DNA of 50,564 nucleotides from Shigella phage vB_SsoS-ISF002. Positions 806 through 48,645 of this stretch are shown one piece after another. The notes beneath the pieces were generated by a model. It saw only the letters and a program-made list of their open reading frames with translations. It ran no database searches and was not told the DNA's origin. The translations under genes and the position numbers were made by a program. The number at the start of each line of letters is the position of its first letter. Within the stretch, counting starts at the first letter, position 1. The stretch is taken from sequence record MF093736. One strand, 5' to 3'.

Positions 806-1021
806 ATGTCTAACAAATTTTTAGTAGTTCGCGTTTACAACCACTCTAACGGTACTAGCAGTGAGATTCCTACTCTTTACAGTAAAGCTGATGGATGGAC
901 CGAAGAATCAGCGGTAGCTAATGAGAAGAAGATTGCTGAGATGTACGGTGACACTTGCGAGTTTGAAGTTCGAGAATATGCAAAACTCACTAACGAGAGT
1001 TACATGTGGGCAGATGCATAA
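806..1021 (+). CDS. hypothetical small protein (71 aa, start moved to internal ATG)
   Basis: ATG at 806 preceded by aaggaaag; followed immediately by the hairpin at 1025..1050. Overlaps the convergent spanin ORF. Confidence 0.35.
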   Translation: MSNKFLVVRVYNHSNGTSSEIPTLYSKADGWTEESAVANEKKIAEMYGDTCEFEVREYAKLTNESYMWADA

Positions 1022-1438
1022 AAGAAAAGGAGGCTTAGCCTCCTTTTTTTCGTCCTTACGAATTGAAAAATAAACCAGCAATAGGCCAATGAAAACGAGA
1101 GTCCATCCTGCAATTGCATCGTACCAGTTTTCTGGCTTTGTTACTGTGATGCTTTCAGCGTTAACCGTGTTAGCCTTAATGGTTGACACTTCAATTGACT
1201 TCTTCAAGGAAGAGTCAATCTTTCCTACATTGGACTTCTCAACTTTAACATCTCGCTTATCTTCGGATTTTGCGGTTACTCCTGCTAATTGCTTTGTGTT
1301 CTCCTCTCCGATTTGTGCTGTAACTTCCGGTTTAGATCCGATTAAACCGCTCAGGGCAGATGCCGTAGAGCAACCGGATAGAGAAATAACACCAACAGCC
1401 ACTGTAATCGCAATGCACGTTTTCTTCAGTTTCATCAT
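908..1438 (-). CDS. unimolecular spanin (N-terminal lipoprotein signal plus C-terminal transmembrane helix); true 3' end uncertain
   Basis: N-terminus [24 protein letters not shown] has a lipobox (LSGC); a hydrophobic helix [15 protein letters not shown] sits near residue 110-125. Position is downstream of the endolysin. The ORF continues through the 1025..1050 hairpin. Confidence 0.5.
1025..1050. terminator. bidirectional rho-independent terminator at the convergence of the two arms
   Basis: Perfect 10-bp stem aaaaggaggc / gcctcctttt with a 3-nt loop, flanked by an A-run and a T-run. Confidence 0.6.
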
Positions 1439-1923: not shown

Positions 1924-2138
1924 TATCTCCCCCTGATCTTAAGCGCCTTATTTAGATCGCCATCGTTTAACGCTTCCTGAATTGCCTTACTATCACGATA
2001 CTTCCAGTATGCACCCCAGGCACCAAAAAGCAGAAAGCAAATGAATGTAGCGCCAGCAATATAAAGTTGCCCTGTCGCCGCCCCTACCAACGAAGCACCG
2101 CCCGTGCTTGACGTAGCTGCTGTTAAAAATTCTTTCAT
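1923..2138 (-). CDS. holin (71 aa from internal ATG; longer 92-aa form possible to 2201)
   Basis: Small protein with a hydrophobic core ([21 protein letters not shown]) and charged C-terminus, directly upstream of the endolysin. ATG at 2138 is preceded by ggtgag. Confidence 0.55.
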
Positions 2139-2256
2139 AATCTCACCATATATTTTTTGAACAAGTGAGTCGATTTTAACCTTCAAATTTACTTGATACA
2201 ACGCAAAAAGGCCAGCATGTAAATCATGCCAGCCTGTAAGGTGATGAATGATATTG

Positions 2257-14203: not shown

Positions 14204-14434
14204 ATGAAAAAGTTAATCACCATTATTGCTGCGGCATTCATCCTGACTGGTTGTGCTCAGAATCTTAAAAATGGCGACTGCGTTACTTACGCGTACGGCT
14301 CTTGCATGATGCGATTCGTTGATGGTAAAAAGGTTCCGGCTGGCGAAATTGACATGCGATTCAAAGGTCTGTCATCCGACGACGATCAGGGCAACTTTAG
14401 CGGCAAGGTATCAATCAAAACTAAAGAGTGGTAA
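14204..14434 (+). CDS. small outer-membrane lipoprotein, candidate superinfection-exclusion protein (Cor/Llp-like)
   Basis: Signal peptide with lipobox MKKLITIIAAAFILTGC; 76 aa; immediately upstream of a candidate receptor-binding protein. Confidence 0.5.
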   Translation: MKKLITIIAAAFILTGCAQNLKNGDCVTYAYGSCMMRFVDGKKVPAGEIDMRFKGLSSDDDQGNFSGKVSIKTKEW

Positions 14435-14436
14435 TT

Positions 14437-15393
14437 ATGGGGCAAGGAATATACATAAATCTAAATGACGGTCGCCCGGCAATGGAGATAACTTCAGGGC
14501 TTCGCGCCCCGTCATGGTGCGGACCTATACAGGCTGACGGGGTTGATTCATCTGGATCGGTTTTTGATTTTGGTTTGCAAATGAGTCCAGGGTCTACTGC
14601 TTTTTGCCTTCCATCTCAGGCTATCTACATAGACGATATGGATTACATCCCGGAGGTGTATTATTTGACCAGTTTTCAGAAGGTCAATGATTCAACCGGA
14701 CGAATAACGGTAGGTAATTTTAACGGGCATGGTGGAAGGAGGATGAGATTTTATGGAAACTGCTACGAAATCCTCCCCGCTCAGGCTGGAAATCAGGGGA
14801 TACTTGTTAACGATTCAACGAACTTCGCAGCGATACCTAATAACGCAAGATTGATGAGCGCTGCATTTGTTGGCGGGATTCAGGTTAACGGTCAGGCTCA
14901 GTTGCCAGTACAGGGCGTTCCTTTCGGTATGTGGGATAATCCAAACGTAACACTTGAATCTGACGGCAATACAATATGGTGCAGGGATGCAAACTATAAC
15001 GGGATTGATGACGTTGGCGCTAGCGTATACGTGCAACTCGTAATATTTAATAACACTCCACCACCTCCTGGGCCAGGAATAACTATGAGTAACCCTGCTG
15101 GTCAGATCGTTTTCTCAAGCGTTAGACGCCCCTTCGTTCTTGGCGGGACTATGGCGATAAATGATGGTTGGCAGTGGTGCGGTGGATTTTTCCCAATACT
15201 GAGAACAGGTACGATATGCAGAGTTACAGGTGGATATAATAACATTCGATACAAGGGCGTTTGCATGAGCGGCGGTAACGTGAGAAGCGCACCCGGAACA
15301 AGGGTAGGTAACTATTCTACTCAGAGCGGCGCTCAATTTCCCTTCAATATAAACATTTCAATGCCAATTCCTTTCACTCCAAACATGTATTAA
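14437..15393 (+). CDS. candidate receptor-binding tail protein (function inferred from context only)
   Basis: 318-aa Gly/Asn-rich protein with a PPPPGPG linker; co-oriented with the lipoprotein and convergent on gene J across a shared terminator. Confidence 0.35.
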   Translation: MGQGIYINLNDGRPAMEITSGLRAPSWCGPIQADGVDSSGSVFDFGLQMSPGSTAFCLPSQAIYIDDMDYIPEVYYLTSFQKVNDSTGRITVGNFNGHGGRRMRFYGNCYEILPAQAGNQGILVNDSTNFAAIPNNARLMSAAFVGGIQVNGQAQLPVQGVPFGMWDNPNVTLESDGNTIWCRDANYNGIDDVGASVYVQLVIFNNTPPPPGPGITMSNPAGQIVFSSVRRPFVLGGTMAINDGWQWCGGFFPILRTGTICRVTGGYNNIRYKGVCMSGGNVRSAPGTRVGNYSTQSGAQFPFNINISMPIPFTPNMY

Positions 15394-37364: not shown

Positions 37365-37384
37365 GTTTTAGCAATTAGTGCTAT
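37365..37384 (-). promoter_or_regulatory. conserved intergenic box
   Basis: Plus strand gttttagcaattagtgctat. Confidence 0.5.
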
Positions 37385-40535: not shown

Positions 40536-40554
40536 GTTTAGCAATTCGTGCTAT
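40536..40554 (-). promoter_or_regulatory. conserved intergenic box
   Basis: Plus strand gtttagcaattcgtgctat; contains the TAG stop of a small ORF. Confidence 0.5.
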
Positions 40555-41821: not shown

Positions 41822-41841
41822 GTTTTAACAAAAAGTGCTAT
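41822..41841 (-). promoter_or_regulatory. conserved intergenic box
   Basis: Plus strand gttttaacaaaaagtgctat. Confidence 0.5.
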
Positions 41842-42029
41842 TCTTTAATTTCGAAGCAATCCGTATCTTCATCGAATACCCAGGGATCGCCATTATCATC
41901 AAGCAATGAGATGTTACCGAAGCTGGTTAGCGAAGCGTTATAAGGCTTGTCGACAGTAAAGCACTCCTTTACTTCCTCATCTTCGCTACCTTTGAATACT
42001 GCAATCATTTGGTGCATAAAATCAGCCAT
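41838..42029 (-). CDS. hypothetical protein (63 aa)
   Basis: ORF with ATG start. Confidence 0.4.
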   Translation of the reverse strand: MADFMHQMIAVFKGSEDEEVKECFTVDKPYNASLTSFGNISLLDDNGDPWVFDEDTDCFEIKE

Positions 42030-42038
42030 TTTTAAATC

Positions 42039-42212
42039 CTATTCGCAAGTGATCTCATTTGATGTGATTGGTAGCAAAACATTGCCAACCATCACAAACG
42101 TAGTAACCTGGCTCCCGGTCTTGTGACAGCTATCTCTGACCTCTCCGCAGCCTGAAACTATCAGGATAGCCAGAGCGACCGACACCATCATGCAAATCAA
42201 TATTCGCATCAT
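42039..42212 (-). CDS. small lipoprotein (57 aa from the ATG overlapping the upstream stop)
   Basis: MMRILICMMVSVALAILIVSGCGEV has a signal peptide and lipobox (VSGC). Confidence 0.4.
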   Translation of the reverse strand: MMRILICMMVSVALAILIVSGCGEVRDSCHKTGSQVTTFVMVGNVLLPITSNEITCE

Positions 42213-42319
42213 TCGAACGCCCCAGCACACAAGAGCAACATTACCACGATGCCAACCATGACGTGACCCATGCAGAAGAACCAGACGGCAGACCATAAAG
42301 CAATTGTATTGAAGTTCAT
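42209..42319 (-). CDS. small transmembrane peptide (36 aa from RBS-supported ATG)
   Basis: MNFNTIALWSAVWFFCMGHVMVGIVVMLLLCAGAFE; RBS gaggtg. Confidence 0.4.
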   Translation of the reverse strand: MNFNTIALWSAVWFFCMGHVMVGIVVMLLLCAGAFE

Positions 42320-42543
42320 TTTAGCACCTCGATCTTGTTGTTGCCGATTGAGTTCTCTACGATCGCTTGCGAGTTTTCTCCCGTGATTCGTATGTAGAAG
42401 TTGCCAATCGCCGCGAAGTTCCACTGACCGCGCCATTTGAAATAAATTCCGTGCTTTGCACCCATAGCGTAGTGAGTGGATTTTGCCGGAATCATGTACC
42501 CGTTTACGTGGGTGAGTTTAGTCTGTTTATTGTAACGTGGCAT
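42316..42543 (-). CDS. hypothetical protein (75 aa)
   Basis: ORF whose stop overlaps the next start. Confidence 0.4.
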   Translation of the reverse strand: MPRYNKQTKLTHVNGYMIPAKSTHYAMGAKHGIYFKWRGQWNFAAIGNFYIRITGENSQAIVENSIGNNKIEVLK

Positions 42544-42549
42544 AATTAT

Positions 42550-42780
42550 TTATTCCTCAATTAAGGTGCTGATATCATCAAAGCCCTGGAGGTCTGCATT
42601 CCAGACTAGGAAGTTTGCAAGGTTTTCGCACCACACCCACTTTCCGTTATCTTCCATGTAGGTTTTGTATCCACCCGGCACGGCTTTGACTGCAAAGCGG
42701 CGACCTATCGATGTGATGAAAATAGCAAAGCGGTTGTTATTGGTTGAATCGATGGCTTGCTGGTTCTTGACGATTGACAT
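42550..42780 (-). CDS. hypothetical protein (76 aa)
   Basis: ORF preceded by a box unit. Confidence 0.45.
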   Translation of the reverse strand: MSIVKNQQAIDSTNNNRFAIFITSIGRRFAVKAVPGGYKTYMEDNGKWVWCENLANFLVWNADLQGFDDISTLIEE

Positions 42781-42843
42781 GGTTAATCCTCTGATTGGTA
42801 TCTCGTTTCGATGGGGTAACTATAGCAAGATGCCCCGATCCGG

Positions 42844-42862
42844 TTTTAACAATTCGTGCTAT
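42844..42862 (-). promoter_or_regulatory. conserved intergenic box
   Basis: Plus strand ttttaacaattcgtgctat. Confidence 0.5.
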
Positions 42863-43582: not shown

Positions 43583-43602
43583 TTTTAACAAAAAGTGCTA
43601 TT
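43583..43602 (-). promoter_or_regulatory. conserved intergenic box
   Basis: Plus strand ttttaacaaaaagtgctat; contains the TAG stop of the upstream gene. Confidence 0.5.
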
Positions 43603-46825: not shown

Positions 46826-46995
46826 TCGTATATATCGTTATGGGCGGCGTTACATATGAGGGTGAATATGTAGAGACTGTTCACCTTGATGAGAAGAAGG
46901 CGAAGCAGTACGAAAACAGAATGAAGGAACAGATTCGCGCCGGAAAAAGCATGTACGACTACACGACGATTGTTGAGAAGGAAATTACCGAATAG
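46822..46995 (+). CDS. hypothetical small protein (57 aa; not in the supplied ORF track)
   Basis: MIVYIVMGGVTYEGEYVETVHLDEKKAKQYENRMKEQIRAGKSMYDYTTIVEKEITE*; RBS ggagga; its stop TAG is inside a box. Confidence 0.4.
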   Translation: MIVYIVMGGVTYEGEYVETVHLDEKKAKQYENRMKEQIRAGKSMYDYTTIVEKEITE

Positions 46996-47010
46996 CACTT
47001 TTTGCTAAAC
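46992..47010 (+). promoter_or_regulatory. conserved intergenic box
   Basis: atagcactttttgctaaac, followed by the inverted repeat gggatgac / gtcatccc around tggtatagt. Confidence 0.5.
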
Positions 47011-48626: not shown

Positions 48627-48645
48627 ATAGCACGATTTGTTAATA
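48627..48645 (+). promoter_or_regulatory. conserved intergenic box (variant)
   Basis: atagcacgatttgttaata. Confidence 0.45.

Follow-up and report, generated by a model that had tools for sequence, protein, structure and literature searches.

A widespread gene and a Tunavirus-specific pair of predicted envelope proteins encoded by overlapping frames in Shigella phage vB_SsoS-ISF002

Do three small overlapping genes in the genome of Shigella phage vB_SsoS-ISF002 constitute a functional module, and do their products act on the host envelope to exclude other phages? The genes lie between positions 42,039 and 42,543 of sequence record MF093736, which was analyzed over its whole length of 50,564 nucleotides (nt) and is referred to here as the window. 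A first-pass annotation had described them as a translationally coupled trio of early genes encoding, among its products, a 36-residue transmembrane peptide and a small lipoprotein, and had put these forward as candidates for superinfection exclusion or modulation of host envelope functions. The window is the genome of a Tunavirus, a T1-like member of the Drexlerviridae, and the 57- and 75-residue products of the trio are identical to ISF002 gp59 and gp60. The 2-kb region around the trio is 94% identical to that of Shigella phage vB_SflS-ISF001 and 82-90% identical to those of many other Tunavirus phages, T1 included. The second and third genes emerge from our analysis as an ordinary but cleanly defined accessory pair with products predicted to be targeted to the envelope. 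The three genes, hereafter A, B and C, are:

42316-42543, minus strand: gene A, 75 residues, Pfam DUF7274 and phrog_6080, equivalent to T1 ORF74
42209-42319, minus strand: gene B, 36 residues (MNFNTIALWSAVWFFCMGHVMVGIVVMLLLCAGAFE), phrog_25570, equivalent to T1 ORF73
42039-42212, minus strand: gene C, 57 residues (MMRILICMMVSVALAILIVSGC followed by GEVRDSCHKTGSQVTTFVMVGNVLLPITSNEITCE), phrog_8628, equivalent to T1 ORF72

The coordinates given by the first-pass annotation for these minus-strand open reading frames (ORFs) are exact, and the ATGA that it reported at each junction lies at 42316-42319 for A and B and at 42209-42212 for B and C, in each case joining the stop codon of the first gene to the start codon of the second. 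In the T1 record the genes are named CPTT1_004, CPTT1_005 and CPTT1_006 (ST74, ST73 and ST72) and are located within the 2.8-kb annotated terminal repeat at the left end of the record, where ORF73 is noted as having a single transmembrane domain and ORF72 carries no note. UniProt labels the ISF002 (exact sequence) and Shfl1 versions of ORF72 as 'Lipoprotein'. The observation itself is not new, as the T1 genome record of 2004 already contains the genes and UniProt has the lipoprotein label, but no paper on these genes turned up in the literature searched, and the T1p72-74 and CPTT1 locus names were absent from the papers listed in a search for them.

Conservation was analyzed on the 505-bp block in 15 Tunavirus genomes with 82-94% DNA identity; phage vB_SsoS_008, which aligns only with gaps (493 columns, 72% identity), was excluded. 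The block is gap-free across the 15 genomes; in each of them A, B and C are preserved as intact frames with an ATG start, and so are the two ATGA overlaps. The ratio of nonsynonymous to synonymous substitution rates (dN/dS) was obtained by pooling pairwise Nei-Gojobori estimates, leaving out ISF001, the proteins of which present many odd substitutions that are probably sequencing errors:

Gene A: dN/dS 0.18 in the called frame; 1.5 and 1.6 in the other frames
Gene B: dN/dS 0.07 in the called frame; 1.2 and 4.0 in the other frames
Gene C: dN/dS 0.12 in the called frame; 2.2 and 1.2 in the other frames

The contrast between frames is unambiguous, even though the pairs share phylogeny and are therefore not independent, and the variable columns fall mostly on codon position 3 (20/15/44 at positions 1/2/3 of A, 11/4/24 in B and 8/8/34 in C). 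With the three ORFs preserved by all 15 relatives, and low dN/dS (0.07-0.18) confined to the called frames, A, B and C are genuine genes, as the first-pass annotation had taken them to be.

Chance ORFs are thus excluded. The broader proposition that the trio includes at least one chance open frame, or that the true product of C is a longer protein, has a negligible probability. It draws on the annotation record, since B is left unannotated in many entries and phage SH6 carries C as a 258-nt, 85-residue N-terminally extended form, equivalent to 42039-42296; it conflicts with the integrity of every ORF in all 15 genomes and with selection on the bases shared by the extension and B, where dN/dS is 0.07 in the frame of B and 4.0 in that of the extension. 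The 85-residue form was rejected on the latter basis. The gaps in annotation extend to six of the 13 annotated relatives examined (Chapo, ISF001, SA32RD, ADB-2, Sfin-1 and Shfl1) and apparently to ISF002 as well, given that gp59 and gp60 flank B, and the ADB-2 annotation also skips the lipoprotein gene. The gene for this often-skipped 36-residue peptide ranks with the most constrained ones in the region. The GC content of B and C, overall and at third codon positions (GC3), resembles that of their neighbors, and with no copy in Escherichia coli chromosomes or prophages a recent foreign insertion of the B-C pair was discarded.

Lipoprotein signals were identified with our own implementation of the PROSITE PS51257 rule, using the lipobox [LVI][ASTVI][GAS]C with Cys at positions 15-35. 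Gene C, in which the first-pass annotation had pointed out a signal peptide and a VSGC lipobox, encodes Arg3, a 16-residue hydrophobic core and the sequence I-V-S-G-C with Cys22, and it is one of just three plausible genes in the whole window that pass this rule, which defines the following features:

42150-42212, minus strand: predicted signal peptide of C, codons 1-21
42147-42149, minus strand: predicted lipid-modified Cys22 of C
42042-42149, minus strand: predicted mature peptide of C, 36 residues

Across 19 sequence clusters of C, residues Cys22, Ser20 and Cys56 are invariant, Cys29 is present in 18 and residues 35-57 barely vary. Gly21 is found in 17 of the clusters and in 14 of the 15 phages (Val in SH6 and Cys in one cluster), and the full lipobox is retained in 17 clusters. 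Within C, dN/dS is 0.10 for the mature part and 0.14 for the signal peptide. This constraint on the mature part, at least as strong as that on the signal peptide, together with the near invariance of residues 35-57, counts in favor of a predicted specific binding surface. An AlphaFold2 model of C presents a beta-hairpin (residues 36-42 and 45-51) between Cys29 and Cys56; its predicted local distance difference test score (pLDDT) of 58.7 makes it too low-grade for a fold search. A Cys29-Cys56 disulfide stapling the modeled hairpin is probable and reasonable, if unproven. We propose that C would be exported by Sec, lipidated at Cys22 via Lgt, LspA and Lnt, and anchored facing the periplasm as a 36-residue peptide with a nearly invariant C-terminal hairpin. 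The residue at +2 is Gly (Val or Ser in a few sequences), followed by Glu at +3, with no Asp at +2. Outer-membrane sorting would be the default in the absence of Asp at +2, but Gly at this position is atypical, and C may be sorted to either membrane; in one reporter study, Gly at +2 reportedly gave inner-membrane retention.

Gene C appears to be an orphan. A tblastn search located it in 54 phage records, all of them Tunavirus, and a word-indexed search of 5.8 billion clusters returned 18 clusters, none of them below 77% identity. When 1.84 billion representatives were scanned in full with a HMMER profile, only the C family, two truncated copies and one spurious repeat protein were retrieved. 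The latter, the metagenomic 169-residue protein P0083, is the sole match to the profile from outside the family and repeats LPITSNRISWK five times; it resembles the translation of a DNA repeat array and is taken to match LLPITSNEIT by chance. Searches of C against Pfam, NCBIfam, PADLOC and PDB sequences gave nothing meaningful, the matches to LptM and 'lipoprotein' models covering the signal peptide alone, and C has no match in 5,426 complete E. coli genomes and none in the sister genera examined (two Webervirus phages, Hanrivervirus and Badaguanvirus). A mimic of the TonB box was also considered and rejected, the mature sequence having no [DE]-T-x-x-V motif.

The peptide encoded by B contains 30 consecutive uncharged hydrophobic residues, with a best 19-residue Kyte-Doolittle mean of 2.46, which bears out its description as a hydrophobic, transmembrane peptide. 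It has no Lys or Arg, a single His (His19) that falls within the span, and a C-terminal Glu, and is predicted to insert in the inner membrane as a single-span micro-protein. Together, this hydrophobic span and the conserved lipobox of C give good support to the prediction that both small proteins are targeted to the envelope. Among the 15 phages B is nearly invariant, with a conserved Gly18-His19 and a C-terminal AGAF-acidic motif. The sole outgroup relative detected is an unannotated 36-residue ORF of Badaguanvirus IME347 (NC_047960, 1598-1708, plus strand; MNPLAFGTAIFFLATGHFWLFIVTMILIGAGAFDDD), which is 42% identical over 33 residues and shares the Gly-His and AGAF-acidic motifs. This ORF is coupled by ATGA to the upstream gp04 and has an 8-nt overlap with the downstream gp05; its neighbors differ from those of the trio, and no lipoprotein gene follows it. 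Hanrivervirus JLBYU41 encodes in the same early arm (2048-2161, plus strand) a 37-residue single-span peptide, MIKALDILFGVMIGLVGLLVFTAGLVIILAVVKEFIK, with a 4-nt overlap with the gene for a 74-residue Cys-rich protein, and small membrane peptides seem to recur in the early regions of Drexlerviridae.

Genes A, B and C are genes 2-4 of a five-gene unit of approximately 1 kb bounded by copies of a repeat/promoter element:

42844-42862, minus strand: direct-repeat element ATAGCACGAATTGTTAAAA that opens the unit and holds the TAG stop of an upstream 156-residue gene
42819-42827, minus strand: extended -10-like element TGCTATAGT inside a short GGGG...CCCC inverted repeat, a putative promoter
42550-42780, minus strand: first gene of the unit, 76 residues, T1 ORF75 homologue, phrog_11449, with its stop 6 nt before the start of A
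41838-42029, minus strand: last gene of the unit, 63 residues, isoelectric point (pI) 4.05, 16 Asp+Glu, phrog_11551, absent from T1
41823-41841, minus strand: next copy of the repeat/promoter element, closing the unit

The repeat ATAGCACnnnTTGnTAAAA occurs in 26 copies in the window, against 0.18 expected. The same 21-nt direct repeat has been described in phage TLS, its authors leaving the role undecided (PMC11447400). Both bounding copies contain the stop codon of the preceding gene and are followed some 20 nt further by an extended -10-like TGnTATAGT; the TTGTTA (TTGnTA) of the repeat lies approximately 22 nt from the -10, beyond canonical -35 spacing. No terminator-like site was found on the minus strand between the two bounding repeats. 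We infer promoter function for the repeat-linked extended -10 from its sequence, and the position of the trio in the small-gene arm behind this putative promoter would place its expression early. The "early" label of the first-pass annotation fits a small-gene arm behind an extended -10 promoter of sigma-70 type, while the timing itself is deduced from this context. The element recurs, for instance, at 37366-37384, 40536-40554 and 43583-43601 on the minus strand and at 46992-47010 and 48627-48645 on the plus strand, besides the two bounding copies. In 18 of the 26 copies a stable hairpin forms within 38 nt after the repeat (RNAfold z ≤ -2 against shuffled sequences). The stems vary among copies (GGGATAAC/GTTATCCC, GGGATGAC/GTCATCCC and AAGGCCA/TGGCCTT), and in many of them the extended -10-like TGnTATAGT falls in the hairpin loop or its 3′ arm; such conserved structure with unconserved sequence suggests a selected hairpin at or before these putative promoters.

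With both ATGA overlaps conserved and a Shine-Dalgarno GAGGTG located within A, 5 nt before the start of B, the junctions are predicted to be of the translational-coupling type, such that ribosomes ending one gene could restart on the next. This arrangement is ordinary and amounts to normal phage gene packing. Of the approximately 75 same-strand junctions annotated in T1, nine overlap by 4 nt and eight by 1 nt, and the minor tail genes include another consecutive overlapping pair, ST36/35/34; since ATGA overlaps are routine in T1 (nine junctions), the coupling of the trio is unremarkable.

The distribution of the three genes speaks more directly to the question of a module. The product of A matches Pfam DUF7274 with 137.3 bits (cut-off 24.5) over positions 1-75 of 75. 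It is a basic (pI 10), soluble protein with a predicted fold of five beta-strands and one helix, and has homologues in 357 phage records, 292 of which correspond to Klebsiella phages. In Webervirus KP36 the stop of the DUF7274 gene sits directly in the next repeat/promoter cassette, and phage B1 has the same order; no peptide or lipoprotein gene comes after DUF7274 in either phage; the gene that does follow in KP36 was considered as an ORF71 homologue and discarded for lack of similarity. In Hanrivervirus JLBYU41, other genes follow DUF7274, among them that of the unrelated 37-residue membrane peptide. No paper mentioning DUF7274 turned up in the literature searched. Within Tunavirus, any record with one of the genes B and C also has the other. 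The phyletic distributions of A, B and C differ, and the trio is therefore not an obligate module: of the "translationally coupled trio" we retain the conserved coupling-type junctions and abandon the functional unit. The reading that fits best is that A is an independent, widespread early gene and that B and C are a pair specific to the genus that was added to the unit in which A lies. Under this reading A would be a cytoplasmic, basic, beta-rich protein with a role of its own, encoded in Klebsiella phages by the last gene before the next promoter.

The restriction of B and C to a genus infecting E. coli and Shigella, and their putatively early position among small accessory genes, would also be expected if one or both neutralized an envelope-associated defense of the host or of its prophages, such as an abortive-infection system with a membrane effector, or a protein for surface exclusion, common in E. 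coli/Shigella and not in Klebsiella. The very acidic 63-residue protein encoded beside them is of a type often linked to anti-defense, although genes engaged in arms races usually diversify and B and C are nearly invariant, no PADLOC model is matched, and neither is any known anti-defense family. We consider a counter-defense role quite unlikely. As regards the 63-residue terminal protein itself (41838-42029), early proteins that are small and acidic often turn out to mimic DNA or to counteract restriction.

Whether C might instead match the receptor used by the phage can be addressed at the tail locus of the window, where a further lipoprotein gene is found:

14204-14434, plus strand: 76-residue lipoprotein, phrog_4281, beside the tail-tip gene
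14428-15393, plus strand: 321-residue phrog_1265 protein, overlapping the 76-residue lipoprotein gene

The Cor cassette has been linked to the use of FhuA, and the type of locus to receptor specificity (PMC13164509; PMC8594841). The receptor locus of T1 consists of the Cor cassette (ST32, ST31 and Cor), and the window carries phrog_1265 and phrog_4281 instead, with no counterpart of the Cor-cassette membrane proteins ST31 and ST32. The phrog_1265 protein is annotated as a receptor-binding protein in one phage record (OzMSK). The 76-residue lipoprotein has a signal peptide identical to that of T1 Cor (MKKLITIIAAAFILTGC) and an unrelated mature part, and the tail locus looks like a swapped receptor/exclusion module that retained its export signal. 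C lies approximately 23 kb from gpJ and is 89.5% identical to T1 ORF72 although the receptor-binding locus differs. Since C stays the same in spite of an altered receptor-binding locus, it is unlikely to act as a receptor-matched blocker; this lack of tracking does not speak against other roles in the envelope. Among the Cor models (phrog_1119 and NCBIfam NF047972) and phrog_8628, C matched only the latter, and it does not align to T1 Cor or to the Cor-like protein of the window. A profile of C searched against all PDB sequences returned no match to Llp (8A60) at expect values (E) up to 10, and none of the five proteins of the unit matched a PADLOC-DB model at E up to 1. An identity of C with Cor or Llp is ruled out by sequence, by location and by the absence of co-variation with the receptor-binding locus.

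The union of a predicted inner-membrane protein with a small lipoprotein is also the architecture of spanins, and C is about the size of lambda Rz1. On this basis C could be a lysis accessory, either similar to an outer-membrane spanin (o-spanin) or a regulator of a pinholin or unimolecular spanin (u-spanin), with B as its membrane partner. The genome, however, has a u-spanin of its own in the lysis cassette:

908-1438, minus strand: u-spanin, a lipoprotein, T1 gp11 homologue, phrog_1804

The trio lies in the small-gene arm and, counted across the ends of the window, approximately 9 kb from this cassette; B lacks a periplasmic domain able to reach C, mature C contains a single Pro, and no spanin PHROG is matched. 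For the B-C pair as a two-component spanin, the single Pro of C, the absence of a spanin PHROG match, the u-spanin encoded elsewhere and a B that is all span led us to reject the candidate, and a lysis role of any kind appears very improbable. Both the lysis-accessory and counter-defense roles are less likely than exclusion or takeover of the host. The u-spanin ORF aligns to T1 gp11 residues 1-133 over 1435..1037 and then continues for 43 extra codons to 908; this read-through of the T1 stop position may reflect a genuine extension of the C terminus or an error in the sequence.

As the leading proposal, which is tentative, B and C would form an accessory pair, specific to Tunavirus and produced within minutes of the onset of infection, that acts on a conserved component of the E. 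coli/Shigella envelope to which C would bind through its predicted hairpin. The most likely effect would be a receptor-allele-independent block of the envelope, resulting in exclusion of further phage DNA or toxins, or, alternatively, protection of the infected cell and of the progeny. Such a block would add to the action of the receptor-linked lipoprotein encoded beside the receptor-binding gene. We arrive at this reading because the hairpin region of C is invariant, the pair is restricted to a genus infecting E. coli and Shigella, C is independent of the receptor module, and there is precedent: to our knowledge, the characterized early small lipoproteins of virulent coliphages (T5/BF23 Llp and T1 Cor) are exclusion factors. 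A superinfection-exclusion role, as raised by the first-pass annotation, is put forward here as a hypothesis only. A stronger version, in which ORF73 and ORF72 jointly constitute an undescribed, receptor-allele-independent exclusion or envelope-lock system unrelated to Cor and Llp, is unlikely; its target could be a conserved E. coli/Shigella machine, such as the energy-transducing or DNA-entry step on which T1-like phages depend after receptor binding.

Several considerations weigh against the envelope block. The trio presents no sequence or profile similarity to any exclusion protein searched. The phage already encodes a lipoprotein at the receptor locus and has no a priori need of another one for exclusion. 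The selection observed is purifying and not diversifying, and any conserved host target fits it equally well. The Gly at +2 is compatible with sorting of C to the outer or the inner membrane, the pLDDT of its model makes the hairpin and disulfide tentative, and the early timing is presumptive. Cooperation between B and C is not required, given that a B-like peptide exists in IME347 without C.

The main rival is that these are unrelated, packed accessory genes and that B and/or C reprogram host envelope physiology rather than exclude phages. B might depolarize the membrane or shut off transport, and C might inhibit a factor in division, peptidoglycan, lipoprotein sorting, lipopolysaccharide or outer-membrane assembly. 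Takeover of the host by independent small envelope proteins is doubtful in absolute terms, yet almost as likely as exclusion: it accommodates the differing phyletic distributions of A, B and C, the routine use of ATGA overlaps in T1, the presence of unrelated small membrane peptides in the same arm of relatives (the 37-residue peptide of JLBYU41; T1 ORF67/68), a strong purifying selection suited to a slowly evolving host target and the failure of C to track the receptor locus. It is weakened by the lack of similarity to known host-takeover proteins or type I toxins, and by the co-occurrence of B and C in all Tunavirus records carrying either, a hint that the two share a role.

T1-like phages have long served as models, are notorious for contaminating laboratories and are being considered for therapy, and their early arm is almost wholly annotated as 'hypothetical'. 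The analysis adds to the existing records a coding proof for the 36-residue ORF, the boundaries of the operon, the different distribution of each gene, and the findings that C is an orphan and is independent of the receptor locus. It reveals in T1-like phages a second lipoprotein, one without known relatives, that does not track the receptor module. The B-C pair offers a small, cheap and well-defined target for studying the remodeling of the Gram-negative envelope by virulent siphophages at the very start of infection. If the envelope lock were true, T1-like phages would carry two mechanistically different exclusion layers, and receptor-independent exclusion would bear on the design of phage cocktails and on the protection of fermentations from T1; if not, B-C would be one more routine accessory-gene pair.

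Set against known systems, B is comparable to the inner-membrane micro-proteins AcrZ, MgrB and CydX and to the type I toxins TisB and Hok. It has no sequence similarity to them, matches no Pfam or NCBIfam model and lacks flanking positive charges, but it is likewise a short single-span peptide, with a polar His19 within the span. The B-C pair recalls the lambda Rz/Rz1 spanins in that the gene for an inner-membrane protein overlaps that for a small lipoprotein, and departs from both Rz/Rz1 and the T1 gp11 u-spanin in that B has no periplasmic domain and the location and promoter are not those of a lysis cassette. Compared with Llp of T5/BF23 and Cor of T1, phi80 and N15, the predicted mature part of C, at 36 residues, is about half the size, lacks sequence or profile similarity, and is not encoded beside the receptor-binding gene, where the window has a separate lipoprotein (14204-14434). 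Like them, C is a predicted small lipoprotein of a virulent siphophage with a canonical lipobox and extra conserved cysteines, and is presumably expressed outside the late structural genes. Imm, in the inner membrane, and Sp, in the periplasm, constitute an early two-protein exclusion system of T4. There is no homology with B and C, Sp is not a lipoprotein, Imm has two spans, and the T4 genes are not translationally coupled; the predicted arrangement is nonetheless alike, combining putatively early small envelope proteins of the inner membrane and the periplasm, and the T4 pair acts independently of the outer-membrane receptor.

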